Source: Candidatus Tayloriibacteriota bacterium (GTDB lineage Bacteria; Patescibacteriota; Minisyncoccia; Phycocordibacterales; UBA6065). Taken from it: a stretch of 64,000 bases of DNA. The stretch spans positions 11,560 to 75,559 of the forward strand of contig JACRJQ010000005.1 of NCBI GenBank assembly GCA_016215405.1, given 5' to 3'. Each line of letters begins with the position of its first letter. Position 1 is the stretch's first letter. A model generated the notes under the pieces. The model was not told the origin of the DNA. It did no database searches and saw nothing but the letters and a program-made list of their open reading frames with translations. This document shows positions 1 through 35,921 of this stretch, one piece after another. Made by a program: the position numbers and the translations under genes.

Positions 1-19
1 CAATGCTATAATCTCCCCA

Positions 20-1699
20 ATGGTAAAGAGGATATTCTCCTTCGTCGGCAAAGAGATCAGCGGTCTTCACGAGGCCGCGTATCTTTTGGCGCTCTCCTCG
101 GTCGCGTCGCTCTTGTTCGCCCTCGTAAGAGACAGGCTCCTCGCGCACATGCTCGGCGCAGGCGCAGACCTCGACGTCTATTTCGCCGCGTTCCGAGTGC
201 CGGATTTCATATTCGTCGCCGTCGCCTCTCTCGTCTCTACGTCTATCCTCGTGCCGTTCCTCATAGAGGCGAGGCAGAAGGGAGAGGACGAGCTGAAGTC
301 GTCGATCGAGAGCCTTTTCCGCGCTTTTACGTTCCTCATCGTGGTCGTATCTATAGCTGCCGCTGTCTTTATGGAGCCGATACAGAGGGCGTTGTTCCCG
401 AACATATTCGCGGCGGGCAAGGGAGCTGACCTCGTCCTCGCGTCCCGCATACTCCTCCTTTCGCCTATCCTGCTCGGTTTCGGCAGCTTCTTCGCGTCTA
501 TAACCCAGATGCAGAACCGTTTCCTCGTCTATGCCCTGGGAGCCCCTCTCTACAATATCGGCATCATCCTCGGGATCCTCTTCTTTCTGCCGTTCTACGG
601 CGTCACAGGCCTCGTCTGGGGGGTCGTCCTCGGCGCCGCGCTCCTGCTTTGCATACAGCTGCCTCTCGTTATCCGTGACGGACATTTCCCGACGTTCTCG
701 TTCTCGTTCGAGTGGGCGAGAGTGAAGCAAGTCGCAAGGCTTTCGATCCCGCGCACCATAACCTTATCGTCGCAGCAGCTCTCGACCCTCGCCTTGGTCT
801 CCTTCGCGTCGTTTCTCGGCGCGGGTTCCATATCCATATTCAACCTCTCGTTCAATCTCCAATCGGTACCGCTCTCCATCATAGGCGCGAGCTATTCTTC
901 TGCAGCGTTCCCGATGCTCGCTCGCTTTATGGCGGAAGGGAATAGGGAGGCGTTCCTCGGCAAGATGATATCGGCCGCGAAGCACGTGATCTTCTGGGCC
1001 GTGCCGCTCTCGGCGCTCTTCATCGTATTGCGGGCCCAGATAGTCCGAACGGTCCTCGGGTCCGGCGCGTTCTCGTGGTCCGACACGCGCCTCACTTCCG
1101 CCGCCCTAGCTCTCTTCGTAGTCTCCGCGGCGGGACAGTCTCTTATCCTCCTTTTCGTCCGTTCGTTCTATGCGGAAGGGAAGACCGCGAAACCCCTCCT
1201 TATCAACGCGATATCAATGGCCGTCACCGTAGGTCTCGGCTTCCTCCTCATCAAGCTCTACCATCTCGTGCCGCTCTTTAGGGATTTCACCGAGGCGCTC
1301 ATGAAAGCCGAGGGTTCGAAGGATTCGTCCGTGCTCATGCTCCCTCTGGCGTTCTCTATCGGGACCTTCCTCAATCTCTTCCTCCACTGGGTCTCGTTCG
1401 GCAGGGAGTTCTCCGGGTTCACGAGACCCGTGCTTAAGACCGCATTCCACTCCGTCGGGGCGTCGCTTATCGGGTCTCTCATCGCATATAGGTCGCTTCG
1501 CCTTTTTGACGACGTATTCGACCTCTCTACAGCTTTCGGCATCTTCATGCAGGGCCTCTGCGCAGGCGTGGTCGGCATCGTCGCGATCGCAGCCGTCCTC
1601 GCCCTCCTGCGCTCGCAGGAGCTTCGAGATATCAGCGCCGCTATCCATGAAAAGGTCTGGAAGGTCGATCGCTCGTCTCTCGATAAGCTGCCCTCATAG
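20..1699 (+). CDS. murJ: Lipid II flippase MurJ (MviN family)
   Basis: 559-aa polytopic membrane protein; N-terminus (GKEISGLHEAAYLLALSSVASLLFALVRDRLLAHMLGAG, DLDVYFAAFRVPDFIF) matches the MurJ/MviN family pattern; ~14 predicted TM segments. Confidence 0.85.
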   Translation: MVKRIFSFVGKEISGLHEAAYLLALSSVASLLFALVRDRLLAHMLGAGADLDVYFAAFRVPDFIFVAVASLVSTSILVPFLIEARQKGEDELKSSIESLFRAFTFLIVVVSIAAAVFMEPIQRALFPNIFAAGKGADLVLASRILLLSPILLGFGSFFASITQMQNRFLVYALGAPLYNIGIILGILFFLPFYGVTGLVWGVVLGAALLLCIQLPLVIRDGHFPTFSFSFEWARVKQVARLSIPRTITLSSQQLSTLALVSFASFLGAGSISIFNLSFNLQSVPLSIIGASYSSAAFPMLARFMAEGNREAFLGKMISAAKHVIFWAVPLSALFIVLRAQIVRTVLGSGAFSWSDTRLTSAALALFVVSAAGQSLILLFVRSFYAEGKTAKPLLINAISMAVTVGLGFLLIKLYHLVPLFRDFTEALMKAEGSKDSSVLMLPLAFSIGTFLNLFLHWVSFGREFSGFTRPVLKTAFHSVGASLIGSLIAYRSLRLFDDVFDLSTAFGIFMQGLCAGVVGIVAIAAVLALLRSQELRDISAAIHEKVWKVDRSSLDKLPS

Positions 1700-1749
1700 G
1701 CTTCGAAAGCTTCAATTTTCGGCGTTTTCTGTTAGTATGACCCTTACCT

Positions 1750-3558
1750 ATGGATATCTCGCGCATACGGAATTTCAGCATCATAGCCCATATAGACCAC
1801 GGCAAATCCACCCTTGCCGACCGTTTGCTTGAGATAACCGGAACGATAGAGAAGAGGAAGATGCAGGAGCAGGTCCTCGACTCGATGGAATTGGAGCGCG
1901 AGCGAGGCATCACCATAAAGATGCAGCCGGTGCGCATGGAATATTCTCTCGACGGGGCGGACTACGTGATGAACCTTATCGATACGCCCGGACATATCGA
2001 CTTCTCATACGAGGTCTCTCGGGCCCTCAAGGCGGTCGAAGGGTCGATACTCCTTGTGGACGCGACCCAGGGCGTGCAGGCGCAAACCCTCACGACCCTC
2101 ACTATGGCTCGCGAGTCTGGGCTCGTCATCATCCCTGTCGTGTCGAAGATCGATTCGCCTTTGGCGCGCACCGACGAGGTGAAGATGGAGATAGCCCAGC
2201 TTTTGAATATCGACCTCGACCTCATATTGGGAGTATCGGGAAAGACAGGGGAAGGCGTACCCGAGCTCCTTCGGGAGCTCGTGAGGCGCGTGCCGGCCCC
2301 TAAGACAGAGGTCGCGATCGACGGCAAGGACTTTCGTTCGCTCGTTTTCGATTTTCAATATTCGAACCATCGAGGAGTCACCGTCTACACGCGCGTCATG
2401 GACGGGACGGTCGAGAAAGGGGACACCCTCATATTCCGCGTCGCGAACGAGACGTTCATAGTGAACGAGGTCGGCATATTCTCGCCGGACGAGATGCCGA
2501 GGGAGGCATTGTCAGCTGGGGAGATCGGCTATATCGTGACCGGAGTCAAAGAGCCGGGCATCGCCTCTGTGGGAGACACTATCACGGCCCTCCGCTCTGA
2601 CCTCGATCCGCTCCACGGCTATATGAAGCCTGCTCCCGTCGTGTGGGCATCTATCTATCCTGAGAGCCAGGACGATCTGACGCTTTTGCGACAAGCGCTC
2701 GGTCGCCTGTCGCTCTCCGACTCTGCGTTCACATATGAAGAAGAGTCCTCAGGCACGCTCGGTCGCGGATTCCGCTGCGGATTCCTCGGGATGCTCCATC
2801 TCGAGATCATAACAGAGCGCCTGCGCCGCGAATTCAACCTTAATCTCGTCGTCACGACACCTTCTATCACATACGAGGTCACTTTCAAGAACGGCAAAAA
2901 AGTCATCGTCTATTCGCCGCCTCTGTTCCCGGACGAAGGAGATATAGCGAAGATAGAGGAACCGTGGGTCGAGCTCAAGATAATAACGCCGAACGACTAT
3001 ATCGGCGCCCTCACCCAGATAATCTTCGAGCACGAAGGCGTCTCTGACCATATGGACACATGGGGAGCGGGAAGGACGGCTATAACCGTGCACATGCCCC
3101 TGCGCGAACTCATGAGGAATTTCTTCGATAACGTGAAGTCTGTCACATCGGGCTACGCATCGATCTCTTACCAGCCCACCGTGATGAAGGTCGCCGACGT
3201 GGCGCGGCTCGATATACTCATCGGCGAGGAGGTGGTGCCCGCGTTCACCCGCATCGTCGCGCGGACGAAAGCCTATGAAGAGGCCGAGAAGGTCGTCGAG
3301 AAGCTCGAACAGATACTCCCTAAGCAGATGTTCGTGACGAAGATCCAGGGTAAGGCGGGAGGACGCATCCTCGCTTCGCGTACCAAGGCGGCGCTCAAGA
3401 AGACGGTCACGGCGCATCTGTCGGGAGGCGACATAAGCCGCAAGAAGAAGCTCTGGAACATCCAAAAGGAAGGAAAGAAGCGCATGCTCGAGCGCGGGCA
3501 GGGCGATATAAACATCCCTCAGGAGGTGTTCGTGAAGATGATGAGGATGGGGGAATAG
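1750..3558 (+). CDS. lepA: Elongation factor 4 (LepA)
   Basis: N-terminal GTPase motifs IRNFSIIAHIDHGKSTLADRLL, DTPGH; length 602 aa; characteristic LepA C-terminal domain. Confidence 0.95.
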   Translation: MDISRIRNFSIIAHIDHGKSTLADRLLEITGTIEKRKMQEQVLDSMELERERGITIKMQPVRMEYSLDGADYVMNLIDTPGHIDFSYEVSRALKAVEGSILLVDATQGVQAQTLTTLTMARESGLVIIPVVSKIDSPLARTDEVKMEIAQLLNIDLDLILGVSGKTGEGVPELLRELVRRVPAPKTEVAIDGKDFRSLVFDFQYSNHRGVTVYTRVMDGTVEKGDTLIFRVANETFIVNEVGIFSPDEMPREALSAGEIGYIVTGVKEPGIASVGDTITALRSDLDPLHGYMKPAPVVWASIYPESQDDLTLLRQALGRLSLSDSAFTYEEESSGTLGRGFRCGFLGMLHLEIITERLRREFNLNLVVTTPSITYEVTFKNGKKVIVYSPPLFPDEGDIAKIEEPWVELKIITPNDYIGALTQIIFEHEGVSDHMDTWGAGRTAITVHMPLRELMRNFFDNVKSVTSGYASISYQPTVMKVADVARLDILIGEEVVPAFTRIVARTKAYEEAEKVVEKLEQILPKQMFVTKIQGKAGGRILASRTKAALKKTVTAHLSGGDISRKKKLWNIQKEGKKRMLERGQGDINIPQEVFVKMMRMGE

Positions 3559-3676
3559 ACCTGGAGGCTGTCTCGTCTGGTCTGTCGTCGGTTTGCGGGA
3601 GTCGGAACTTTTCAGTCACATGTCGCGTTATATAGGTAGCTCGACATTACAAAGCGCTTAATTTCGCGAGAGAGGA

Positions 3677-4081
3677 ATGCAAAGCATCTATAGGGCATAC
3701 GACGTGCGCGGCATATATCCGGACGAGGTGAACGCAGAGAGCGTAAAGAAGATAGGCAGGCAGTGCGCCCGGATATTCGAATCGGGGAAGGTCGTCATAA
3801 GCCAGGACGGGAGGCACGGCGGCGCGGAGCTGCGCCGCGCCTTTTGCGAAGGTCTCCTCGAAGAGGCTGGGCGCACTGGCAGAGAATTCGAGCTCATACA
3901 GGTGCCTTTATCCACATCCCCTATGTTCTACTATCTCGTTGGATATTACAGGGCTTCTGGCGGGGCGATGGTCACGGCTTCGCATAATCCAAAGGAGTAT
4001 AACGGGATAAAGGCGGTACGGCGCGAAGGAGATTCCGTTATGTTCGTAAGCGGCACCGAGATAGGAGCGATAGAACTCTAG
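3677..4081 (+). pseudogene. Phosphomannomutase/phosphoglucomutase, N-terminal domain I fragment (active-site TASHNP); split from downstream ORF by frameshift plus TAG
   Basis: Contains the PGM/PMM catalytic Ser motif TASHNPKEYNGIK; ends at a TAG at 4079-4081 exactly at the domain I/II boundary; next ORF starts 3 nt later in another frame. Confidence 0.65.
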
Positions 4082-11273: not shown

Positions 11274-11795
11274 TTAGTATTCTATGCCTCGTACGGCCTT
11301 GCCTCCTTTGGCGAAGGGATGCTTCACCTCTCTCATATAGGTGACGAGATCGGCTTTCTCTACGAGCTCCTCAGGGCAGTCCCTGCCCGTCACTATTACG
11401 TGCTCTACGTAAGGGGCGATGTCGTCGATGAGCTTCATAGCGGCTTCGAAGCCTATGAGGTCGAGCTTCATGGCGTTGAGAAGCTCGTCAAGGACGATCA
11501 TGTGCCAATTCCCAGATCGCGCTTCGGAGCGCGCGTATTCCATGCCTTCCGCCGCCGCCTCGGCATGATCTTCGCGCGTCAGGGTGTCTCCCTGTATGCC
11601 CACGAATCCCTTGCCGACCTTCCGTATCTTGAAATATGGCGAAAGCCTGTCGCAGGCGACGTCTTCTCCCGATATCCACGGTCCCTTTATGAATTTGACC
11701 ATGAGGGTCTTCTTTCCCACGCCGGCCATCCTCATGCTCTGTCCGACCGCCGCCGATGTCTTGCCCTTGCCGTTGCCCGTGAATACGATAAGCAT
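11274..11795 (-). CDS. Cob(I)yrinic acid a,c-diamide / cob(I)alamin adenosyltransferase (CobA/CobO/BtuR family)
   Basis: P-loop-like VFTGNGKGKTSAAVG plus the rest of the CobA fold; 173 aa; adjacent to nrdJ. Confidence 0.85.
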   Translation of the reverse strand: MLIVFTGNGKGKTSAAVGQSMRMAGVGKKTLMVKFIKGPWISGEDVACDRLSPYFKIRKVGKGFVGIQGDTLTREDHAEAAAEGMEYARSEARSGNWHMIVLDELLNAMKLDLIGFEAAMKLIDDIAPYVEHVIVTGRDCPEELVEKADLVTYMREVKHPFAKGGKAVRGIEY

Positions 11796-11800
11796 GTCTT

Positions 11801-14131
11801 TTAGGCTATCTCGCAGACGCCCGAGACGCAGGCGAGCTCTTTTTTGACGTCGAGCTCGTTGGTCCGCTCGTATGTGATTATCTTCGAGTAGTCGATGTGG
11901 GCAAGTCGGGCCGAAAGCTCTTCGTACTTCTCCTGGGTGATCGTCTCATACGGCGCGAGCTGGTAGACATGGTTGTCGCGGGGAAGGAAAGAGAGGCCTC
12001 CGACGATGTCCCAATTCTTGTATACCCAGTTGCCGACCTCTATCCATTCTTCCTCTCCTACCGATATGGTCACCGACGGATTGTGATCGGTCCAGTTTAC
12101 CTTCACCTTTTTCCAGAATTCGAGGAGCTCGATCGCGGTAAGGTCGTTCTTGTACACAGAGTCGTCGGGGGCCTTGACCGGGAATTCCAGTACGTAGGTC
12201 GAGGCGTTCTCGGCCGATTGCCCGACCTCAGGGTAGTAGGGCACGCCCTGGTCCTTGAGCATCTTGAAGAGGGAATCTGTGGCCGAGATGCGTACGCGGC
12301 GGATGTAGTATTTCGAATGGCGCGGGTGCATGCCGGAGGAGCAGTCGACGGTCTGAGAGACCGTTCCCGACGGCTTTACGCACGTGATGCAGGTCGAGGC
12401 GTTTATGCCGAAGCGTGCGGCGTACTCTTTGTTGACCTGTTCGGTGACCTTCCTCATCTCCCGCAGGGTCTCCTCGTCTCGAACGGCCGGAGAGTCCCAT
12501 TGGCCGGTGATCGAAACGCCGAGGAGTCTCTCCTCCTCGCATCGCTCCTTCCATTCTTTCGAGAGGTAGGGGAAGTAGGTGAGGGTGGACTGATACGTGC
12601 CGAGGATGGTCGCGAGCCTGGTCTTTCGCAGAAGCTCCGCCTTCGTGTCTTCCTTGCGGGCCACGACCTCGGATAGGTTGCAGAACTGCTTCGACTGGAG
12701 GATTATCTCGCCGCACGGGTTCGTTCCGATAGGGCCGATGACGTTCCCGTTGAGGTCGAGATAGCCCTCGTGCTTCTTCCATGCCTCTATGCGGCGGGGA
12801 GGGAGGGTCTTTGCGAGAGACCCTCGATTGAATATGCCTCGCTCTCCGGAGCCCGATTTCATAAGGGCGACCCACTCGTCCATGAATTCGGTGTTCGAGG
12901 GCTTCGTCACGTATACGGCGGAGTTGTTTGAGAGCATCCTTTGAGGCTCGGTCTGATAGAAGGCGCCCTTCTTAGCGTCGCGGACGTCGGTATCGTCGAG
13001 GTCAGAGAGCGAGATCATCGCGGAGCGGCGAACCCCTCCCGCGACCACGCAATCTCCGATCATGCAGATGATATCGTGTATGTCTATGTTCCTGAGGCGC
13101 TTTCCTTGGCGCGAGAGCATCTTCTGGCGCGTGAAAGCGAGCAGACGCCTCAAAGGCTCTGGTCCCGACGCTTTGCCTCCCATGGTCTTGAGCCTTGTTC
13201 CGACCGGCCTGATCTGGCTGAAGTCGAATTCGACGTCGCTGCCCTCGACCCAGGCCTTGACGCCGGCCGTAAGGGAGTCCGCCCAGCCTTCTTTGCTGTC
13301 TGCGATCACATAAGTAGGCAGCTTCTTGCCTGTTTGGATCTTGATCTGGGCGAACCTCTGCACGTTCTGGCTCTCGACCGAATAGCCTACTCCCGTGCCG
13401 CACATAGATATGTACATGATCTCGGCGAGGTCTTCGAACCTTTCTGGCGCGATGAACGAGCAGTTGTAGGCGCAGACGTGCGTCTTGCGCGCGGCAGGTC
13501 CCGCGAACTGCAGGAGGCGCATCGACGGCATGATCTCCTGCTTGAGTATCGCCTCGCGGATCTCCTCGTACTCGCTCTCGGTGAGTTTGTCGCCGGCATT
13601 CTCCTTCATGAAGTCGATGTATCGCCCGACCGTCTCTATCCACGTCTCTCGGCGCGATTCGGAATCGATCCAGCGCGCGTAGGTGCGGTAATAGACGAAT
13701 TCGCCGAGCGAGTTCCTGAAATACGTCTTGCTCTCGAGGGCGAGCTTTCGTACATGCTCGGGGACCTCTACTCCGGTCTCGCGCAGCTTCGCCCTCTTGT
13801 CGCGATAGAGGATGAAGGCCTTTGCCGTCTGGACGTATTCTCCGAGGATGAGCTCTCTTTCTATGGTGTCTTGGACTCCTTCGACGGTAGGGACGAAATT
13901 CTTGTACTTCGCCGCAATCGACGCGATGTCGTCGAACACCGCGTCCGCGACCTTCTCGGCCTCTTGGAGCGACCCTTCCTGGGCCGACCTCATCGCTTTG
14001 TCGATGGCCGTCACTATCTTCTGGGGGTCGAACGCCGTTATGACGCCGTTTCGCTTCATGACCCTCTTTACGAGAGCCTCTCTCGACATGTCATCAGGCT
14101 TTCCCCACAGATTCTTTTGTTGCGACGGCAT
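11801..14131 (-). CDS. nrdJ: Class II (adenosylcobalamin-dependent) ribonucleotide reductase NrdJ with N-terminal ATP-cone
   Basis: ATP-cone VKRVMKRNGVITAFDPQKIVTAIDKA; RNR barrel motifs incl. NPCGEI, SNLSE; true start taken as MPSQQK (ATG at 14131), not the upstream in-frame extension. Confidence 0.9.
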   Translation of the reverse strand: MPSQQKNLWGKPDDMSREALVKRVMKRNGVITAFDPQKIVTAIDKAMRSAQEGSLQEAEKVADAVFDDIASIAAKYKNFVPTVEGVQDTIERELILGEYVQTAKAFILYRDKRAKLRETGVEVPEHVRKLALESKTYFRNSLGEFVYYRTYARWIDSESRRETWIETVGRYIDFMKENAGDKLTESEYEEIREAILKQEIMPSMRLLQFAGPAARKTHVCAYNCSFIAPERFEDLAEIMYISMCGTGVGYSVESQNVQRFAQIKIQTGKKLPTYVIADSKEGWADSLTAGVKAWVEGSDVEFDFSQIRPVGTRLKTMGGKASGPEPLRRLLAFTRQKMLSRQGKRLRNIDIHDIICMIGDCVVAGGVRRSAMISLSDLDDTDVRDAKKGAFYQTEPQRMLSNNSAVYVTKPSNTEFMDEWVALMKSGSGERGIFNRGSLAKTLPPRRIEAWKKHEGYLDLNGNVIGPIGTNPCGEIILQSKQFCNLSEVVARKEDTKAELLRKTRLATILGTYQSTLTYFPYLSKEWKERCEEERLLGVSITGQWDSPAVRDEETLREMRKVTEQVNKEYAARFGINASTCITCVKPSGTVSQTVDCSSGMHPRHSKYYIRRVRISATDSLFKMLKDQGVPYYPEVGQSAENASTYVLEFPVKAPDDSVYKNDLTAIELLEFWKKVKVNWTDHNPSVTISVGEEEWIEVGNWVYKNWDIVGGLSFLPRDNHVYQLAPYETITQEKYEELSARLAHIDYSKIITYERTNELDVKKELACVSGVCEIA

Positions 14132-14234: not shown

Positions 14235-14615
14235 ATGTCAAACGAAAAAGATCCTCGCTTGAAAAGCTCAGCGCCCCTGATATACTGGAAAACGTTAAAT
14301 ATCGAAACCGTGAAATCACCTCTACCACAGGAGGCATACCAGCGAAACGCCCATATATATAAGATATTGGCGAATTCGAAGCGTCTCGAGGTGCTCAATC
14401 TCCTCAAGAAGAGGGAGCTCTCCGTAGAGGAGATGCTCAAGATCACGAAGCTCTCCAAAGCTAACCTCTCTCAGCATCTCGCGCTCTTGCGCCACAACGG
14501 TCTTGTTCACACAAGGAGGGTGGGGCTCAATATATACTATAAGATCGTCGATCCAAGGATCGTCGAGCCGTGCAAGATACTCCACAGCCTCCGCCACAAG
14601 CATCTCGTCATGTAG
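14235..14615 (+). CDS. ArsR/SmtB-family transcriptional regulator
   Basis: wHTH: IYKILANSKRLEVLNLLKKRELSVEEMLKITKLSKANLSQHLALLRHNGLV; divergent from nrdJ. Confidence 0.75.
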   Translation: MSNEKDPRLKSSAPLIYWKTLNIETVKSPLPQEAYQRNAHIYKILANSKRLEVLNLLKKRELSVEEMLKITKLSKANLSQHLALLRHNGLVHTRRVGLNIYYKIVDPRIVEPCKILHSLRHKHLVM

Positions 14616-14625
14616 CGAGGATGAG

Positions 14626-14648
14626 GCCCGGGACACCCCGGGCTTTTT
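14626..14648 (+). terminator. Intrinsic terminator GCCCGGG-ACAC-CCCGGGC-TTTTT
   Basis: Perfect GC stem plus T5 after arsR. Confidence 0.8.
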
Positions 14649-14714
14649 CGCGTCCGAGAGGCCGCGGCATTTACTTTGGCGCGCTCATGTAGTTCAGTAA
14701 TTTATAAACATTGA

Positions 14715-14903
14715 AACTATAGGCGAGTGGTGCTACGCTCGGAAGTACCATCGGTTGTTGGAAGTGAGGTATCATCCCTCCACTGTGCCGCAACGGTAAA
14801 GTCCGCCCGAAGAGGGCGGAACGAGTCCGGTCGTCAGCCGATGCGTATCCCGAGCAGGAACGAGTAGCGCCTTCGCGCATACCTGCTTCGGCAGGATTTT
14901 TTT
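14715..14903 (+). ncRNA. Probable cobalamin riboswitch with terminator expression platform
   Basis: ~190-nt ORF-free structured leader containing B12-box-like CCCTCCACTGTGCCGCAACGGTAAAG and GGTG...GGAAG elements; ends in hairpin CCTGC-TTCG-GCAGG + T7 immediately before the ATG of a DUF4430 gene (a classic cobalamin-riboswitch-regulated gene). Confidence 0.5.
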
Positions 14904-15410
14904 ATGAAAAACAATTCGCGCATAGCTCTAAGCATCGCCTTCGCGCTTATCCTGTTCTCGACAGGAGCGGTCTTTTCGCGCCGCCCGCTCGTCGCCGAAG
15001 CGCCCGAGGCGCCGTCCTCCTCAATCCAGGCGAGGGAGGTCGTAGCGCCGTCTCCTCGCGAGGAGGCCCCTCTTCTGAAAAAGGCAGGGACTAGGACAGC
15101 GGAGGACGTCGCGCATGGAGAGGCTATGAGCGTATCGGTTTCGATAGGAGGCGAGGCTCGAGAAGCTCTGGTGCCGATCGGCGCCACCGCGTACGACGCC
15201 ATGGCGCTCCTCAGAAAGCAGGGAAAGGCGGAATACGAGTCGACATACTATCCGTCCCTCGGCCACTTCATAAAGGAGATCGCGGGGAAGGAGAACGAAG
15301 GAGGGTATTATTGGACGCTCTATATCAACGGAGAGTATTCGGAGAGAGGAGCTTCGTCCGCCGTCCTTACCGACGGCGATAAGGTCGAATGGAGATATGA
15401 GAATAAATAA
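14904..15410 (+). CDS. DUF4430-domain secreted protein (predicted cobalamin-binding, transcobalamin beta-domain-like)
   Basis: Signal/TM anchor then DUF4430 signature YYWTLYINGEYSERGASSAVLTDGDKVEWRY. Confidence 0.65.
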   Translation: MKNNSRIALSIAFALILFSTGAVFSRRPLVAEAPEAPSSSIQAREVVAPSPREEAPLLKKAGTRTAEDVAHGEAMSVSVSIGGEAREALVPIGATAYDAMALLRKQGKAEYESTYYPSLGHFIKEIAGKENEGGYYWTLYINGEYSERGASSAVLTDGDKVEWRYENK

Positions 15411-17352
15411 TCGAATGAAAGCATCTAGGGGGGTAGAGACCGCAGCTGTCGCCTTTTTCGCCGTCGCATCGTCCTTTTTCGTGGGAACGCCTTTCGCCGA
15501 GGCTCAATCGACGAGCACGCCGTCAGCGACTATAAGGCTCTCCATCGAAACGGCCACCACGACCCTTTTCGACGCCGAAATCGAGGTCCTGGCGTGTCCG
15601 GAGTCCGCATCGAGCACTCCGTTTTTGACCGGATACTGCGCCGTAGAGTCTTCGGGGCTCGATACGACGTGGTCGCCCTGGGGAGATATGCTCTTCCTCG
15701 ACGGCATCGCGGGATCGAACAACGATTTTTCGGCGGGGCTGTCTTGGAACTGGTTCTCTGACCTCGAATACGGCCAGACTTCTCTCGATGAGCATATCCT
15801 CGTAGAGGGGGAGAGCCTCCTTGTCGCCATAGGAAGGATGCCGCTTAAGATGTCTTTCGCGACCACGACCCCGGAAGTGGGCGCTACAACGACCGTCTCC
15901 GTATTCGAATTCGGCTTCGACGCGGGATGGAATCCGGCATGGCTCCCTTCGTCTACTACGACGGTGCTCTTTGCGGGCACGCCTCTCATCACCGACGCGA
16001 ACGGGCACGCCGATATCGTCGCGACGTCGACCGACAGCATCGCCGTCATCGCCGAGAAGGGCGGATTCATATCGGCGAGGGCGTCGCTTGCCCCCCGCGC
16101 CGCCGCGGTCCCTGCCCAAGAAAGCGAGCCTCAAGAGCCGCAGTCGAATTCGCAAAACCAGGAAAGCTCGGTGGTCGTATCTTTCCATCGCGCGATCGAC
16201 GCGGCGAAGGCGATATCGTTCCTCGCCGCGAATCAGAGGGAAGACGGCTCGTTCGGTTCCGACCTCTATACCGACTGGGCGGCGATCGCCCTGGCGACCG
16301 CCCCATACTCTGAGGCGCGCGATAAAGCGTCTAGGTATCTCTCTTCTTCCGCGCTCGCGAGCGGGTCGGCGACCGATTACGAGCGCAGGGCGATGGCTCT
16401 TATGGCGCTTAACATCGACCCGAGGACGGGTACGTCGGTCGATCACATAGCGAAGATCGTAGGATTCTTCGACGGAGAGCAGATAGGCGACAAATCTCTC
16501 GTTAACGACGACATCTTCGCGATATTTCCGCTCGCGAAGGCGGGATTTCTCGCGTCTGACGAAATACTAAAGAAGACCGTATCGTTCATCCTCTCGAAAC
16601 AGCGGGAAGGAGGGTCGTGGGAGGGGAGCGCCGACCTTACCGCCGCCGCGATCCAGGCGCTCTCATTGACGCCTTCTCTAGAGGGCGTAGGAGGGGCGCT
16701 CTCGTCCGCCAGAGGGTATCTCATGTCGCTTCCGAGATCCGAAGGAGGCTTTGGGAATTCCTACACGACGAGCTGGGCGCTCCAGGCGATAGCCGCTCTC
16801 GGAGAGAGCCCTTCCGCTTGGATGCACGAGTCCCTCGATCCGAACGACTATCTCTATGGCCTGCAGAAGGGCGATGGCGGGATAGGAGACGTCTCGCTCG
16901 GACAAAGCTCGAGAGTCTGGGCGACCTCTTATGCCGTACCGGCGTCATTAGGTAGGACGTGGGGGAGCATCCTTTCTTCGTATTCGAAGCCCCCGGGAGA
17001 GGAAGCGAGAGCGCCGCAGGCCCTCGTCGCGGCGCGGGAGCCTGAAGAGTCTAGCAGCGCCGCTACCACGACGTTGCCCGTCATTTCGCCCGTCCCTGTT
17101 CCGTTGCCTGAGCCTTTGGCCTTGATAGATGAGCCTGCGGCGTACAGCGAGACGCAGGAGGACCTTTCGGGGCCTACGCCCACGGTAGAGCCGGATATTT
17201 CGTCGAGGGAGCCGGCGAAGGAAGGGGAGTCTCTCGCCGCAGCTTTTGCGGCGGGCGGCAAGGAAGAGGCCAAGACGAGAGAGCTGGTCTTCATGCTCGC
17301 TCTGTTTCCTGTGGGAGGCTTCGCGGCTCTTTGGATTATAAAATCGCTATAA
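15397..17352 (+). CDS. Large surface protein: N-terminal DUF4430-like domain + prenyltransferase/squalene-cyclase-like alpha/alpha-toroid repeats + C-terminal TM anchor (transcobalamin-like architecture)
   Basis: Signal peptide; WNWFSDLEYGQTSLDEHILVEGESL (DUF4430-like); repeats DGSFG, EGGSWEG, EGGFGNS, DGGIGD typical of prenyltransferase alpha-toroid; Pro/Glu-rich linker; C-terminal LALFPVGGFAALWIIKSL anchor; 14-nt overlap with upstream gene. Confidence 0.6.
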   Translation: MRINNRMKASRGVETAAVAFFAVASSFFVGTPFAEAQSTSTPSATIRLSIETATTTLFDAEIEVLACPESASSTPFLTGYCAVESSGLDTTWSPWGDMLFLDGIAGSNNDFSAGLSWNWFSDLEYGQTSLDEHILVEGESLLVAIGRMPLKMSFATTTPEVGATTTVSVFEFGFDAGWNPAWLPSSTTTVLFAGTPLITDANGHADIVATSTDSIAVIAEKGGFISARASLAPRAAAVPAQESEPQEPQSNSQNQESSVVVSFHRAIDAAKAISFLAANQREDGSFGSDLYTDWAAIALATAPYSEARDKASRYLSSSALASGSATDYERRAMALMALNIDPRTGTSVDHIAKIVGFFDGEQIGDKSLVNDDIFAIFPLAKAGFLASDEILKKTVSFILSKQREGGSWEGSADLTAAAIQALSLTPSLEGVGGALSSARGYLMSLPRSEGGFGNSYTTSWALQAIAALGESPSAWMHESLDPNDYLYGLQKGDGGIGDVSLGQSSRVWATSYAVPASLGRTWGSILSSYSKPPGEEARAPQALVAAREPEESSSAATTTLPVISPVPVPLPEPLALIDEPAAYSETQEDLSGPTPTVEPDISSREPAKEGESLAAAFAAGGKEEAKTRELVFMLALFPVGGFAALWIIKSL

Positions 17353-17356
17353 ATCT

Positions 17357-17887
17357 ATGAACAAGAAGAACGTCTTATTATTCTCTCTCGGCCTCATCGC
17401 CCTCGGCGTCCTAGGCAGGCTCGCGCCGCATCTTTGGAACGCGACCCCCCTCGGCGCGATCGCTCTGTTCGCGGCGTCCTATTTCGGGCTGCGCATGTCG
17501 CTTCCTGTGACGCTGTCGATCCTTTTCATAACGGATCTCGCCATCGGGTTCTATGATTGGAGGATCATGGCATCGGTCTACGCCTCGTTCGCCCTCGCCG
17601 CTATCCTAGGCAGGCTCACGTCCCGCTCGCGCGCGCCGTACAAGGTCGGCCTCGCGGTGCTCGGCTCTTCGACGCTCTTTTTCCTCGCGACCAACCTCGC
17701 GGTCTGGCAATTCGGGACGATGTACCCGCACACGCTCTCTGGCCTCGCAGACTCCTATATCGCCGCGCTCCCGTTCTTCAGAAACTCGATCATAGGGGAT
17801 TCCATGTACGCCCTAGCTCTTTTCGGGTCCTATGAGCTCTACCTCTCTTTGAGGCCCTCTGCCGCTAAAGGAGCCGTTGCAGCCTAG
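17357..17887 (+). CDS. Small polytopic membrane protein, ECF-transporter S-component/BtuM-like (putative cobalamin permease)
   Basis: 176 aa, ~6 TM, N-terminal WNATPLGAI motif reminiscent of ECF S-components; last gene of riboswitch operon. Confidence 0.45.
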   Translation: MNKKNVLLFSLGLIALGVLGRLAPHLWNATPLGAIALFAASYFGLRMSLPVTLSILFITDLAIGFYDWRIMASVYASFALAAILGRLTSRSRAPYKVGLAVLGSSTLFFLATNLAVWQFGTMYPHTLSGLADSYIAALPFFRNSIIGDSMYALALFGSYELYLSLRPSAAKGAVAA

Positions 17888-17940: not shown

Positions 17941-18237
17941 ATGACTCCTGAAGAACATCGGATGCTCGTAGAAGCGCGCGATCTGGCCTTAGAGAACGCA
18001 AAATTGCTCAAGAGCCTACGCCGGTCGCATCGAGCAGGGACGATACTTCGAGTCATATATTGGGTTGCCATCCTCGGCGTGTCTTTCGGCGCATACTATC
18101 TGATACAGCCTTACGTAGATATGCTAAAGGGGTCCTTCGGCAATATAGGCGGCATAGGCAGCGTATCTCCGAAGGCTATGACGTTCGAGGGCGCGCTGGA
18201 GAACATAAAGGCCATAAAGGATATATATTCTCAATAG
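17941..18237 (+). CDS. Hypothetical small membrane protein
   Basis: 98 aa, one TM (VIYWVAILGVSFGAYYLI); TATACT-N6-ATG leaderless-type start. Confidence 0.45.
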   Translation: MTPEEHRMLVEARDLALENAKLLKSLRRSHRAGTILRVIYWVAILGVSFGAYYLIQPYVDMLKGSFGNIGGIGSVSPKAMTFEGALENIKAIKDIYSQ

Positions 18238-18244
18238 GCAGATC

Positions 18245-18317
18245 GCTTGGATAGCTCAGTTGGTAGAGCACTTCCCTGAAGAGGAAGGGGTCCCCAGTTC
18301 GAACCTGGGTCCAAGCA
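18245..18317 (+). tRNA. tRNA-Phe (GAA)
   Basis: GCTTGGATAGCTCAGTTGGTAGAGC..anticodon loop CTGAAGA..T-arm CCCAGTTCGAACCTGGG..TCCAAGC-A; no CCA encoded. Confidence 0.9.
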
Positions 18318-31632: not shown

Positions 31633-33084
31633 ATGCTTTCATTCATCAAACGCAAGAAGGTCATCATTATCATCATCGCGGTCGCCGTCATAGCGGTAGC
31701 CCTCGGCCTTAAGGCGCGCGGCAACGGGGGATACGAGACGACATCAGCGGTCCGCGGCGACCTCGTACGGACCGTGGAGCTCTCGGGCAAGGTCGTGCCC
31801 CAAGACGATGCCGACCTCGCCTTCGAGGTCACGGGCAGCGTCGCGAGGGTATACAAAAGGGTTGGCGACAGGGTCGCTGCGGGCGAGGTCATAGCCGAGC
31901 TCGACAAGGCGGCGACGAACGCCGACCTCATGAAGGCGCAGGCGGACCTCTCCGCGGCGAGAGCGGAGCTCGCAAAGCTCGAGGGGGGAGCGGACATAAA
32001 CGCAAAGATAGCGAGCTCCAGGAAATCGATCGTTCAGAGTATCCTCGACGCCTACACCGACGCCGACGACGCTATCTATAACAAGGTCGACCAATTCTTC
32101 GAGGACCCTCGCACCCCTAATCCGGAGATCATATTCTCCTTCGACGACTACGCGCTTCGAAACCGGGTGAATGCCGCTCGCGTCTCGGTGGGGAACACCC
32201 TCGCAGAATGGAGGGCGCGGACGGCCGACCTCTCGGTCACCACCTATGTCGAAGCCGACCTCGAAAGCGCAAAGGCGTCCCTCCGCGAGATATCCCTCTT
32301 CCTCGACGACGTGGCGAGGGCGGTCAACGCGTTCAAGCCCTCTACGTCCCTTACCCAGACGCAGATAGACAAATACCGCACCGACGTCGCGGCGGCGCGC
32401 CAGAACGTCAACGGAGCCTCTGCGACCCTCATCTCGGGCGAAGAGAGCCTCACTTCCGACGTCTCCGACGTGCCGGTCCAGGTCGCGCGGGTGCAAGCGG
32501 CAGAGGCGACCGTCGCCAACTACGCCTCGCGCCTCGCCAAGATGTCCTTGCGGTCGCCAATATCGGGCATCGTCTCGAAGCAGGACGCCAAGGCAGGGGA
32601 GGCTGTCTCGGCGAATACGGTCGTGGCGTCGGTCATAAGCGAAGGACTCAAGATGGAGGCGTACGTGCCTGAGGTGTCGGTCGCAGGCGTCGTCGAAGGC
32701 GCGCTGGCCGAAGTGACCCTCGACGCGTATGGCGACGACGAGCTTTTTAGGGCCAAGGTCGTGCACGTAGACCCTCGAGAGACCGTCCGCGACGGAGTCT
32801 CGACCTACAAGATCGACCTCGTATTCTCGGAATCAGACGAGCGCATCCGTCCCGGCATGACCACCAATATCGTCATAGAGACCATGAGGAAAGAAGGCGC
32901 GCTTCTCCTCCCCGAGAGAGCCGTCACGGGAGGCAAGGGGTCGAAGACCGTCCTCGTAAAGGATGCCGAGGGGAATATCTCTGAAAGGGAGATCCGCGAG
33001 GGCCTTACGGACACCAACGGCAATATCGAGATCCTCGAAGGGATCTCCGAGGCCGACACCGTCGTGCTTAATCCGAAGAAGTAA
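31633..33084 (+). CDS. HlyD-family periplasmic adaptor (MacA-like membrane fusion protein)
   Basis: N-terminal TM, coiled-coil hairpin, beta-barrel/lipoyl motifs (GKVVPQDDADLAFEVTGSVARVYKRVGDRVAAGEVIAELD). Confidence 0.8.
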   Translation: MLSFIKRKKVIIIIIAVAVIAVALGLKARGNGGYETTSAVRGDLVRTVELSGKVVPQDDADLAFEVTGSVARVYKRVGDRVAAGEVIAELDKAATNADLMKAQADLSAARAELAKLEGGADINAKIASSRKSIVQSILDAYTDADDAIYNKVDQFFEDPRTPNPEIIFSFDDYALRNRVNAARVSVGNTLAEWRARTADLSVTTYVEADLESAKASLREISLFLDDVARAVNAFKPSTSLTQTQIDKYRTDVAAARQNVNGASATLISGEESLTSDVSDVPVQVARVQAAEATVANYASRLAKMSLRSPISGIVSKQDAKAGEAVSANTVVASVISEGLKMEAYVPEVSVAGVVEGALAEVTLDAYGDDELFRAKVVHVDPRETVRDGVSTYKIDLVFSESDERIRPGMTTNIVIETMRKEGALLLPERAVTGGKGSKTVLVKDAEGNISEREIREGLTDTNGNIEILEGISEADTVVLNPKK

Positions 33085-33087
33085 CAG

Positions 33088-34335
33088 ATGCCGCAATTCA
33101 TCAGGATAGGATTCTTCCTCGCGCTCCGGCAGGTGCGCAGGGCGTCGAAATGGACCACGAGCCTCATCATATTCGTGATGACTCTGACGTTCCTCAACCT
33201 CGTCGTGGTCTCCGGTATCCTGGTGGGCCTCATAGAGGGCGCGGTCGAGGCGAACAAGACCTATTACACCTCGGATATCATAATCTCCAAGCTCGAGAAG
33301 AAAGACTATATAGAGCAGAGCCCTCTCGTCCTTAATATCATCCGCTCTATGCCCGAGGCCGAAGAGGTCTCTGCGCGCTATATCGAATCTGGCAGGGTAG
33401 AGGCGAACTACAAATCGGCGGCCAAGGAGGAGGAGATCGATTCCGCCGGAGGCACCTTCGCGGGCATCGACCCGGTGGCCGAAGAGAGGCTCACGGGAAT
33501 CTCCCGCTTCGTCATAGAAGGAGAATATCTCGAGCCTGACGATTACGACCAGGTCCTCGTAGGCGCGTACCTCCTCAAGAAATATTTTCCGGTCGAATCT
33601 CCCGGGTTCTCTACTCTCGATAACGTCGAGGTAGGGGACAAGATACGCGTCACCCTAGGCGACATCACCCGCGAGGTGCGCGTAAAGGGGATCGTGAAGT
33701 CGAAGGTGGACGAGCTCGCGTATCGCGTCTATTTCGTCGACAGGCAGTTCCGCGACCTCATCGGCCGCTCCGACTATAACGTCGACGAGATATCCGTGAA
33801 GATCCGCGAGGGCTCCGACGCCCTCGACGTAAAGGAGGCGCTTCTACGCGCGGGCGTCGGGCGCTATGCCCGAGTCCAGACGTTCGAGGATGCTCAGCCG
33901 AAATTCCTCAAGGATATAAAGGCGACCTTCGCCCTTCTCGGCAACATGATCAGCTCGATCGGCCTCGCCGTCGCGTCGATCACGATCTTCATCGTCATAT
34001 TCATAAACGCGATCACTCGCCGAAAGTTCATCGGCATATTGAAGGGTATCGGCATAAGCGGCAGGACGATCGAGGTCTCGTACATATTCCAGTCGTTCTT
34101 CTACGCGATCTGCGGGTCGGCGATCGGGCTCGCGCTCCTCTACGGCTTCCTGCAGCCCTATATCGCCGCTCATCCTATAAACTTCCCGTTCTCCGACGGC
34201 ATCCTCGTGGCCCCCGCCCTCGGCACGACGGTCAAGGTCGCCATCCTCGTGTTCACGACGATAATCGCCGGGTATATACCCGCGAGGATGATCGTCCGCA
34301 AGAATACACTCGATTCTATCCTAGGAAGAAACTGA
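33088..34335 (+). CDS. ABC transporter permease, FtsX/MacB-like
   Basis: 415 aa, N-terminal TM, large extracytoplasmic domain, C-terminal FtsX 3-TM bundle. Confidence 0.8.
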   Translation: MPQFIRIGFFLALRQVRRASKWTTSLIIFVMTLTFLNLVVVSGILVGLIEGAVEANKTYYTSDIIISKLEKKDYIEQSPLVLNIIRSMPEAEEVSARYIESGRVEANYKSAAKEEEIDSAGGTFAGIDPVAEERLTGISRFVIEGEYLEPDDYDQVLVGAYLLKKYFPVESPGFSTLDNVEVGDKIRVTLGDITREVRVKGIVKSKVDELAYRVYFVDRQFRDLIGRSDYNVDEISVKIREGSDALDVKEALLRAGVGRYARVQTFEDAQPKFLKDIKATFALLGNMISSIGLAVASITIFIVIFINAITRRKFIGILKGIGISGRTIEVSYIFQSFFYAICGSAIGLALLYGFLQPYIAAHPINFPFSDGILVAPALGTTVKVAILVFTTIIAGYIPARMIVRKNTLDSILGRN

Positions 34336-34336
34336 T

Positions 34337-35017
34337 ATGGAGCTCATCAAAGTAAAGAACCTCGTAAAGACATTCCAGAACGGCGATAAGGAGACGCACG
34401 TTCTTAAGGGCATCGATTTCTCGTGCGGAGACGGAGAGTTCATCGCCATCATGGGTCGTTCCGGAGCCGGCAAATCGACCTTCATGTATCAGATAAGCCT
34501 TCTCGACGAGCCGACTTCCGGCGAGATCGTCGTCTTCGATAAGAACACCCACTCCATGACCTCCGAAGAGAAGACGAAGTTCAGGCTCAACAAGCTCGGC
34601 TACGTGTTCCAAGACTACGCCCTCTTGCCCGACCTAACCGCCGTCGAGAACGTCGCCGTGCCCCTTATGATGCAAGGGAAGTCCAAGAGGGAGGCGTATA
34701 TCGAGGCGAAGGTCGCCCTCGAGCTCGTGGGCCTCGGACACCGGTTCGACAACCTGCCGTCCCAGATGTCGGGAGGCGAGCAGCAGCGCACCTCGATCGC
34801 GCGCGCCCTCGCGCACAAGCCTCGCATCCTCTTCGCCGACGAGCCGACCGCGAACCTCGACAACGAATCGTCGAAGACCATCATGGAGCTCTTCAAGCAG
34901 GTCCATGACTCGGGGCAGACCATAATCATGGTCACCCATGAAGAGGAGTATTCGAAGCTCGCGAAGAGGGTGATCCGGCTCGACGACGGTAGGATCATAA
35001 GCGATCAGAGGCAGTAG
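34337..35017 (+). CDS. ABC transporter ATP-binding protein (MacB/LolD-type)
   Basis: Walker A GRSGAGKST, Q-loop, signature LSGGEQQR, Walker B ILFADEPT. Confidence 0.9.
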   Translation: MELIKVKNLVKTFQNGDKETHVLKGIDFSCGDGEFIAIMGRSGAGKSTFMYQISLLDEPTSGEIVVFDKNTHSMTSEEKTKFRLNKLGYVFQDYALLPDLTAVENVAVPLMMQGKSKREAYIEAKVALELVGLGHRFDNLPSQMSGGEQQRTSIARALAHKPRILFADEPTANLDNESSKTIMELFKQVHDSGQTIIMVTHEEEYSKLAKRVIRLDDGRIISDQRQ

Positions 35018-35036
35018 CTTCGGCTCGCGTGATATC

Positions 35037-35921
35037 ATGAAAGGCACGATGGATAAGAGAGGATTCACCCTCATAGAGCTCCTGGTCGTGATATCGATAG
35101 TCTCGCTCCTCTCGAGCGTCGCGCTCGCAAGCCTCAATTCCGCTCGCGATAGGGCGGACCTAGCCGCAGGGAAGAGGTTCGCTGCCCATGCCAGGTCGGC
35201 TTTGGCCGCGAAGTCGGCGAATAACGCGCCTTTGGTGTATCTGACCTTCGATTCGGGATCGGGTGCTTCGAGCATCCTCAATTCGGGCCTGCTCTCGGGA
35301 AGCGTGGGCACCTGGAACGCCTCTTTTCAAGCCGACAGCTCTCTTTACGGGACCGGCCAGCACATGAGAGGCCCGACCGCGACCCTCTCGTACCCTCTAG
35401 TCTGGGCCGAGAGCGGCGGGTCGCGCATCGGACAGGCCATATCGGCGCTCGATTTCACGATGTCTATCTGGTTTAACCCGAACGGGAGCTCCTACGCCTC
35501 TGCCTGTGGCGGGCCGTGCAGGATAATATCGAACGCTCAAGACGGCAACAACACCTCTATGCGCATAACCACATCGGGCGCTATAACGTTCCTCATAGAG
35601 GGCACGCAGGTGCTCTCCTACGCGCTCTCGCCGAAGGATTCCTGGTATCACCTCGCGTTCACCTCCGCGAACAGAGGGTCGACCATCGACGTCGCTCTCT
35701 ACGTCAACGGCAGACAGGTCGCCACGGCATCCCGAGCGACGCTCTCTTTTTCTGCTCCGGTCTCGAACATATCCGTCGGAGGCGCCTGCTGCTCGAGCTA
35801 TGTCCTCCCGAACGCCCTCTATGACGACGCGGCGTTCTTCGATAGCGCCCTCCTCGCGAGAGATATACGCGAGCTCTATCTGGCGGGCGGCGGAGATAGG
35901 GAGGCTTTCGCCCGCAGGTGA
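35037..35921 (+). CDS. Type IV pilin-like protein with C-terminal concanavalin A/LamG-like domain
   Basis: Prepilin signal KRGFTLIELLVVISIV (cleavage G|F, E+5); C-terminal LamG-like beta-sandwich (SIWFNPNG...WYHLAFT). Confidence 0.7.
   Translation: MKGTMDKRGFTLIELLVVISIVSLLSSVALASLNSARDRADLAAGKRFAAHARSALAAKSANNAPLVYLTFDSGSGASSILNSGLLSGSVGTWNASFQADSSLYGTGQHMRGPTATLSYPLVWAESGGSRIGQAISALDFTMSIWFNPNGSSYASACGGPCRIISNAQDGNNTSMRITTSGAITFLIEGTQVLSYALSPKDSWYHLAFTSANRGSTIDVALYVNGRQVATASRATLSFSAPVSNISVGGACCSSYVLPNALYDDAAFFDSALLARDIRELYLAGGGDREAFARR

Follow-up and report, generated by a model that had tools for sequence, protein, structure and literature searches.

The window, as the whole stretch of DNA analyzed here is called, covers 64 kb of a 144.7-kb contig from a Candidatus Taylorbacteria (candidate phyla radiation (CPR)/Patescibacteria) metagenome-assembled genome (MAG). 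CPR bacteria are abundant and mostly uncultured, with tiny genomes and almost no cofactor synthesis. The list of open reading frames (ORFs) places three of them on the same strand at 14904-15410, 15397-17352 and 17357-17887 (+), behind a structured leader, and the operon that they form is the subject of this work. The most likely task of the three genes is the extracellular capture of vitamin B12 and its transfer into the cell, and we consider it quite probable that the operon serves corrinoid capture and import under the control of a cobalamin riboswitch. The genes are as follows.

14904 to 15410, forward strand: gene 1, DUF4430/SLBB protein, secreted or N-terminally anchored, 168 amino acids (aa), MBI5133994.1
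15397 to 17352, forward strand: gene 2, surface-anchored protein with SLBB domain, β-sandwich and (α/α)6 toroid, 651 aa, MBI5133995.1
17357 to 17887, forward strand: gene 3, DUF6580 six-helix membrane protein with the S-component fold of energy-coupling factor (ECF) transporters, 176 aa, MBI5133996.1

An initial annotation of this DNA had described three co-directional, overlapping genes. Every feature that it named was found where it had been placed, and the common direction was confirmed, but a 14-nt overlap of genes 1 and 2 exists solely when the upstream ATG at 15397 is taken as the start of gene 2 (651 aa) rather than the NCBI start at 15415 (645 aa), and genes 2 and 3 do not overlap at all. 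The 4-nt gap that separates them, together with the lack of a Shine-Dalgarno (SD) sequence of gene 3's own, suggests that genes 2 and 3 may be translationally coupled.

The riboswitch leader

The elements recognized in the leader are listed below.

14745 to 14846, forward strand: predicted cobalamin riboswitch aptamer, adenosylcobalamin (AdoCbl)/RF01482-like, divergent CPR form (Rfam, CPR covariance model)
14749 to 14757, forward strand: outer (closing) helix, 5' strand, CAUCGGUUG, pairing with 14835-14843 (Rfam structure line)
14824 to 14832, forward strand: B12 box, AGTCCGGTC, aligned to the RF01482 consensus AAGUCAGGUC
14835 to 14843, forward strand: outer helix, 3' strand, CAGCCGAUG (Rfam structure line and covariation)
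14850 to 14858, forward strand: conserved block CCGAGCAGG, putative anti-terminator/anti-anti-SD strand, complementary to 14882-14891
14882 to 14903, forward strand: terminator/SD-sequestering hairpin CCTGC-TTCG-GCAGG followed by T7 (terminator scan, sequence, minimum free energy (MFE) fold)

A permissive scan of positions 14600-14950 yielded a sub-threshold match to the AdoCbl family RF01482 at 14749-14843 (33.5 bits, E = 1.3e-4, model positions 17-104 of 149). The low score is mainly due to the closing helix, which has 9 bp and a bulge compared with the 12 bp of the Rfam model, and to the 3' part of the model, which remained unmatched; in these two regions the window copy deviates from RF01482. 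On the other hand, the leader shares with the cobalamin riboswitches of Rfam clan CL00101 (RF00174, RF01482 and RF01689) the core GGAAG..GGUG..CC..CxCxGUxCCGCxACGGUAA, the B12 box and the helix layout. The core elements GGAAGUGAGGU..CCCUCCACUGUGCCGCAACGGUAA and AGUCCGGUC were found in the window leader, and 28 columns were invariant over 26 leaders, as was the AGTCCG of the B12 box. The string CCACTGTGCCGCAACGGTAAAG, quoted as B12-box-like in the initial annotation, actually belongs to the universal aptamer core; the B12 box in the classical sense, AGTCCGGTC, lies at 14824-14832. The MFE of the leader fold was -85.2 kcal/mol (z = -4.95), a value that none of 200 shuffled sequences equaled.

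The comparative evidence came from 94 related loci, i.e. 14 DUF6580 loci from species-representative genomes, retrieved with a single protein as query, and 80 metagenomic loci with relatives of gene 2. The window and 39 of these loci have in common the invariant core GGAAG..GGT..CC..CACTGTGCCGCAACGGTA (also written as GGAAG..GGT..CC..C.C.GT.CCGC.AC.GTA), and in all 40 cases it precedes the genes and lies on their coding strand. In 11 of 20 core-bearing loci a match to the cobalamin clan was obtained at this position with Rfam gathering thresholds, six of them to RF01482 (51.6-60.5 bits), two to RF00174 (37.7-41.4 bits) and three to RF01689 (36.5-41.2 bits), and four further loci gave RF01482 matches below threshold (38-45 bits).

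In the variable 3' half, MAFFT alignments of complete leaders could not be relied on, and RNAalifold did not recover the outer helix from them; the leaders were therefore trimmed to the aptamer and a covariance model was used. When a MAFFT alignment of 26 trimmed aptamers that had not been fitted to any structure was scored against the Rfam-derived structure, 84.4% of the cells were paired versus 67.8% in shuffles (reached by 0 of 500), compensatory changes were present at 18 of 24 pairs, and the covariation score was 0.453 versus 0.09-0.18 with slid partners. All 10 pairs of the outer helix showed compensatory changes, and in many leaders the closing helix consists of 9-11 contiguous pairs built from 30 different strand sequences. 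The CPR covariance model (R1) constructed from this alignment detected the element in 62 of the 94 CPR loci and in the window, always on the + strand and with 37 detections outside the training set, and it also picked up a Chitinophagales locus whose canonical RF00174 riboswitch scores 108 bits. The window leader, which was part of the training set, scored 79.9 bits at 14745-14846, i.e. in the middle of the range of the 63 leaders. In the 64-sequence alignment fitted to the model, 90.4% of the cells were paired and 20 of the 24 pairs showed compensatory changes. Because homologous leaders pass the Rfam gathering scores and because of this covariation, we place the leader at 14745-14846, as a divergent form, within the clan of cobalamin riboswitches, which agrees with the riboswitch proposed in the initial annotation. 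One new element is a CPR riboswitch lineage that lies partly under the Rfam thresholds, which overlook a sizeable share of CPR cobalamin riboswitches.

The leader also carries a candidate expression platform of the OFF-switch type known from clan CL00101, in which a terminator or SD-sequestering structure is formed. As noted initially, a terminator hairpin (14882-14895), followed by T7 at 14897-14903, abuts the ATG of gene 1 at 14904, and the only SD-like sequence there, AGGA at 14893-14896, lies within the 3' arm of the hairpin, 7 nt upstream of the ATG. Reading the sequence, CCGAGCAGG (14850-14858) is able to pair with CCTGCTTCGG (14882-14891) with one bulge, and this pairing and the hairpin are mutually exclusive. 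The CPR lineage differs from other cobalamin riboswitches in having an invariant block, CCCGAGCAGGA, 3' of the aptamer (14849-14859 in the window); it was invariant across 22 aligned leaders, in which the 5' arm of the hairpin, CYCTGCTYGG, is complementary to the block and a T-run comes next. The block was present in 55 of the 63 leaders, and 35 of these 55 have a complementary arm (CTGCTY) and a T-run within 110 nt. The CCCGAGCAGGA block is kept as sequence, beyond its pairing potential alone. It may be an SD mimic (anti-anti-SD), which is the simplest reading, or be involved in a tertiary interaction with the aptamer. The window segment GCUCGG (14736-14741), which pairs with CCGAGCAGG in the MFE fold, was considered as its partner and discarded, as it is not kept in other leaders.

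Since cobalamin riboswitches usually work in this way, we infer that the ligand favors the hairpin and switches off transcription and translation. When B12 is plentiful, the ligand-bound aptamer would hold 14850-14858, the hairpin would form, and the three genes would be turned off at the level of transcription and/or translation; when B12 is scarce, the anti-terminator would form and the three genes would be expressed.

The three gene products

The folds, domains and topology of the products are given below as they were found; the corrinoid is the ligand that we infer for them. Gene 1 matched PF14478 (DUF4430) over residues 93-166 (E = 7.7e-15, 55.6 bits versus a Pfam cut-off of 23.8), as the initial annotation had claimed; its single hydrophobic segment, at residues 5-26, is N-terminal, and it has a linker of low complexity. 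Because of this arrangement, gene 1 is predicted to be a secreted or N-terminally tethered SLBB domain, and DUF4430/SLBB is the fold of the transcobalamin β domain (PMC1796856). On its short tether, the gene 1 product would take or bind B12 close to the membrane. In most of the related loci a small stand-alone DUF4430 gene likewise lies 5' of the toroid gene.

Gene 2 is built from the following parts.

15514 to 15837, forward strand: domain 1, DUF4430/SLBB-like β-grasp, aa 40-147, with invariant Cys67 and Cys81 (HHalign)
15838 to 16089, forward strand: domain 2, all-β, aa 148-231 (strands in the AlphaFold2 (AF2) model)
16201 to 16971, forward strand: domain 3, (α/α)6 toroid, aa 269-525 (AF2 model)
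17017 to 17346, forward strand: Pro/Glu/Ser-rich disordered stalk, aa 541-626, and membrane anchor, aa 627-650

The AF2 model of gene 2 (mean predicted local distance difference test score (pLDDT) 82.3) consists of a signal peptide, β domains at 43-231, a linker, the toroid at 269-525, the stalk and a C-terminal helix; its predicted template modeling score (pTM) was 0.55, and the inter-domain geometry is uncertain. The pLDDT dropped below 50 along the stalk (541-626), which is followed by the modeled helix 627-650, overlapping a hydrophobic segment (629-651). Foldseek searches with gene 2 returned toroid families only and did not resolve the N-terminal domain, which was hence examined with HHalign: residues ~98-144 matched the stand-alone DUF4430 alignment with a probability of 95.8% (E = 7e-9), whereas domain 2 was not DUF4430 (probability 0.5%). 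By itself, the N-terminal domain had no Pfam match. These data are in agreement with the anchored surface protein combining a DUF4430-like module and a toroid that had been proposed initially, although a protein of 651 aa is not the giant that it had been called.

The Pfam matches of gene 2 alone were all sub-threshold, i.e. SQHop_cyclase_C (E = 0.005), PF01122 Cobalamin_bind (E = 0.0075; 15.7 bits, under the gathering score of 25) and Prenyltrans (E = 0.043). Of the family assignments suggested in the initial annotation, DUF4430 passed its cut-off for gene 1, the DUF4430 and toroid families did not for gene 2, and gene 3 fell into DUF6580. The homologs of gene 2 (566) are nearly all from CPR bacteria, and among 73 relatives SQHop_cyclase_C was found in 59 and PF01122 in 48 (at E <= 1e-3, best 1.2e-7). 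In sequence, squalene-hopene cyclase repeats are no more distant from the toroid than the cobalamin binders. The fold searches do not distinguish the toroid from terpene cyclases or from the thioester domains (TED) of complement, so that B12 is assigned to gene 2 from its context and not from its structure.

Gene 2 is predicted to unite an SLBB β domain and an (α/α)6 toroid in one extracellular protein. Transcobalamin and intrinsic factor consist of the same two folds, which in transcobalamin sandwich B12. Compared with the animal transcobalamin, intrinsic factor and haptocorrin, the domain order of gene 2 is reversed, a β-sandwich, a stalk and a membrane anchor are added, and the PF01122 match stays below the cut-off. 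The concept of B12 capture by an SLBB domain and a toroid is itself known since 2007, when bacterial surface proteins with both were predicted to be B12 binders (Burroughs et al. 2007, PMC1796856). Exported and held on an ~85-residue disordered stalk with a C-terminal membrane helix, gene 2 would catch the corrinoid away from the membrane.

Two other identities were considered for gene 2 and rejected. A class II terpene cyclase would not fit a protein with a signal peptide and a surface anchor that has a single toroid of ~260 residues, without the βγ didomain, and in which the cyclase DxDD motif aligns to sADLTA. A thioester protein of the complement/α2-macroglobulin type would need a cysteine in the toroid for the CGEQ motif, and the only cysteines of gene 2, C67 and C81, are both in the N-terminal domain. 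Because of the single toroid, the loss of DxDD, the absence of toroid cysteines and the export of the protein, the function that NCBI gives to gene 2 by calling it 'terpene cyclase/mutase family protein' is probably wrong. In public records the family is commonly labeled 'terpene cyclase/mutase' or 'prenyltransferase/squalene oxidase repeat-containing protein', and the present reading of gene 2 would fix a recurrent misannotation across a large family of surface proteins.

Gene 3 matched PF20221 (DUF6580, E = 1.8e-41) and no other Pfam family. DUF6580 comprises ~6,600 clusters at 50% identity and is labeled as of unknown function; no published function for it was found in the literature searched. 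A fold search revealed a six-helix S-component fold with BtuM as the top structural match (14% identity). The ECF-S/BtuM-like nature proposed initially thus holds for the fold and fails for membership of the BtuM family. Pfam did not place gene 3 in an S-component sequence family such as PF12822, and the family member P0504 gave a weak full-length match to PF12822 (27.2 bits, below the cut-off of 30.7; E = 4.5e-6). When all PDB chains were searched, BtuM was not matched at E <= 10 by phmmer with gene 3 or by the DUF6580 profile, the profile matched no PDB chain at all at E <= 10, and sequence searches with gene 1 and gene 3 produced nothing meaningful; therefore, homology to BtuM, CbrT or transcobalamin cannot be claimed by sequence.

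BtuM imports B12 as a solitary S-component without an ECF module, its Cys80 (loop 3) is an essential cobalt ligand, and it also binds cobinamide (PMC6072759). We found no ECF ATPase or T-component genes within the 64-kb window, in agreement with the initial annotation; the only ABC ATPase (34337-35017) is part of a HlyD-FtsX-ABC system. In the 94 related loci, 2327 ORFs within ~3 kb of the genes were checked, and none had Walker A and Walker B motifs together. As no ECF component was seen nearby in the window or in the related loci, gene 3 probably works without an ECF module, as BtuM (Thiobacillus denitrificans; PDB 6FFV/8OVV) does, and its vitamin-binding S-component fold would move the corrinoid across the membrane. 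Unlike BtuM with its Cys80, gene 3 has no cysteine at all, and none of the columns conserved over 71 DUF6580 sequences is a cysteine, so that the binding chemistry must differ; the loop-1 residue His25 is near-invariant in DUF6580. Further differences from BtuM, beyond the lack of detectable sequence kinship, are that DUF6580 is regularly paired with an extracytoplasmic DUF4430 protein, a need not reported for BtuM, and that BtuM is found mainly in Proteobacteria, whereas DUF6580 is abundant in the monoderm-like CPR bacteria.

The trio of S-component, DUF4430 β-like protein and α-like toroid protein is also present in Firmicute ECF cobalamin operons (e.g. Lactobacillus sakei lsa1836-1840; ECF-CbrT). 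The L. sakei operon encodes an S-component, β-like and α-like proteins and a full ECF module, and heme was proposed as its ligand by docking; in contrast, no ECF module was seen near the window genes. The window system would function like these known systems but belongs to neither the BtuM nor the CbrT family.

Genomic context and competing explanations

The interpretation as a B12 system gains from neighbors that the initial annotation had left unused, i.e. the genes for a B12-dependent enzyme and for a corrinoid-activating enzyme.

11801 to 14128, reverse strand: class II (AdoCbl-dependent) ribonucleotide reductase NrdJ (ATP-cone, RNR_Alpha, Ribonuc_red_lgC, RNR-II_ins_dom; start codon uncertain)
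11274 to 11795, reverse strand: BtuR/CobO ATP:corrinoid adenosyltransferase (PF02572, E = 1.1e-50)

Both genes adjoin the operon divergently, with btuR just downstream of nrdJ. NrdJ is the likely consumer of the imported B12, and BtuR would convert the imported corrinoid to AdoCbl; adenosylation by BtuR and subsequent binding to the reductase would trap the corrinoid and pull its uptake. NrdJ, BtuR and the operon make up a small B12 'acquire, activate, use' island.

The linkage recurs in the CPR lineages, where the class II ribonucleotide reductase is repeatedly wired to the DUF4430-DUF6580 pair. In 8 of the 14 CPR DUF6580 loci the order is NrdJ, DUF4430 and DUF6580 on one strand, without a riboswitch between them (L004, L006, L007, L008, L010, L012, L013 and L014, at about 1-3800). 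In L007, L012 and L013 the riboswitch lies instead ahead of a separate toroid gene farther downstream. Behind the 63 riboswitch leaders, the gene order is DUF4430-toroid in 36 cases, DUF4430-toroid-DUF6580 (the window type) in 14 and another combination of these genes in 13. In 33 loci, the gene immediately before DUF6580 contains an SLBB domain. As to bacteria other than CPR, a cobalamin riboswitch scoring 103 bits is followed by a TonB-dependent receptor and DUF6580 in a Pseudomonadota MAG, and in a Chitinophagales genome DUF6580 is convergent with a riboswitch-controlled TonB receptor. One protein (P0358, L103:173-1186) fuses DUF6580, an extra transmembrane helix and DUF4430. In P0274 (372 aa), DUF6580 continues in frame from the C-terminal portion of a toroid protein like gene 2; the two may be truly fused, or the contig may be truncated and the ORF an artifact of gene calling across the boundary (read-through).

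Each component is of a known kind, and the new elements are DUF6580 as a membrane component, its steady partnership with DUF4430, with the pair as a candidate ECF-independent corrinoid importer, and the linkage to NrdJ in CPR bacteria. In such a two-part importer, the extracytoplasmic SLBB protein would hand B12 to the solitary membrane protein of S-component fold. A broader proposal, which we put forward tentatively and hold to be somewhat less than an even bet, is that DUF4430 and DUF6580 constitute a widespread, unrecognized two-part importer of corrinoids that is free of ATP and ECF, provides the main B12 route of CPR bacteria for their only ribonucleotide reductase, and uses a cobalt chemistry other than that of BtuM, with His25 as the candidate ligand. 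If so, the pair would be the first S-component transporter assisted by a binding protein. A role of DUF6580 in corrinoid uptake would also fill part of the gap posed by B12-dependent bacteria that lack BtuCDF, BtuM or ECF-CbrT. If NrdJ is the sole reductase of the cell, as synteny hints, DNA synthesis would hang on scavenged B12, which would then be a testable dependency on the host or community and possibly a handle for cultivation.

Several results weigh against an operon for riboswitch-controlled corrinoid import. The Rfam scan of the whole window at gathering thresholds gave no cobalamin match, its only hits being tRNAs; the window leader remains under the RF01482 gathering score of 50 and reaches no other Rfam gathering score. 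No conserved 5' (ligand-bound) partner of CCGAGCAGG was found among the aligned leaders. Gene 3 lacks the cobalamin-binding cysteine that BtuM needs, the homologs listed include just one DUF6580-DUF4430 fusion, on a contig of 1.9 kb, and the DUF4430-DUF6580 pair of the non-CPR loci L095-L100 is encoded behind a ModA-type ABC transporter and without a riboswitch. In L098:3154-6594, L099:3195-6585 and L095:3827-6624, a secreted DUF4430 protein and DUF6580 are encoded behind SBP_bac_11/BPD_transp_1/ABC_tran genes, with no riboswitch at Rfam thresholds. Finally, the ECF search covered the 64-kb window and the 94 related loci, and a module elsewhere in the genome is conceivable, so that the system is complete and ECF-independent, as the initial annotation had it, only putatively.

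This last point bears on the possibility that gene 3 is an ordinary, ATP-driven ECF S-component for B12 that uses a shared EcfAA'T module encoded elsewhere (group II type). We judge it unlikely, given that no ECF ATPase or T gene was seen in the 64-kb window or close to the genes of the 94 related loci and that DUF6580 occurs beside TonB-dependent receptors in Pseudomonadota and Bacteroidota, which is the setting of solitary BtuM. The ligand might also be another tetrapyrrole or a corrinoid precursor (heme or cobinamide), the riboswitch merely reporting the B12 status: the homologous L. sakei operon was proposed to be a heme importer, BtuM accepts cobinamide too, the fold searches leave the ligand unspecified, and some of the non-CPR pairs do without a riboswitch. 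The heme proposal, however, comes from docking alone, 63 leaders place the genes under cobalamin riboswitch control, the linkage to NrdJ and BtuR is close while no heme genes were seen nearby, and no genes for lower-ligand/nucleotide-loop assembly were seen in the examined parts of the window, which makes a different ligand clearly improbable. A riboswitch that has decayed to a non-functional relic, with constitutive expression of the operon, would fit the low Rfam score and the shortened outer helix of the leader. Against this, no invariant position of the core is lost, the CCGAGCAGG block, the B12 box and the terminator hairpin are likewise intact, and the folding z-score and the mid-range score with the lineage model also speak for a working element, so that we give this explanation hardly any credence. 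There is a similarly slight chance that gene 2 is an enzyme (terpene cyclase or prenyltransferase) or a thioester-type protease trap and that the operon has nothing to do with B12 capture. Its toroid resembles those of such proteins in fold searches, but it lacks the second domain, the catalytic motif and the cysteine that they require, and the protein is exported, held on a stalk, fused to an SLBB domain and encoded behind a cobalamin riboswitch. Corrinoid capture and import under riboswitch control is retained as the preferred explanation of the operon.

Neighboring features of the window

A regulator gene of the ArsR/SmtB family (14235-14615) sits between nrdJ and the riboswitch, with a promoter-like site at 14259-14286 and a GC hairpin with a T-run (14626-14648) at its end. 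Since the ArsR gene ends in a terminator-like hairpin of its own, the operon should have a separate promoter, predicted between ~14650 and 14745. A role of ArsR as a B12-related regulator was considered and its presence judged incidental, as none of the related loci examined contains the gene and as it comes with a promoter-like site and a hairpin of its own.

Just 3' of gene 3 (17941-18317 region) lies a 98-aa ORF with one predicted transmembrane helix, which is preceded by a weak hairpin with a T-run and by a TATACT box and is directly followed by a tRNA gene (18245-18317), one of 10 tRNA genes in the window. Farther downstream, the region 31633-35921 encodes the HlyD, FtsX and ABC ATPase (MacAB-like) set and then a pilin-like protein, in which a Laminin_G_3 domain accompanies the methylation motif at the N-terminus.

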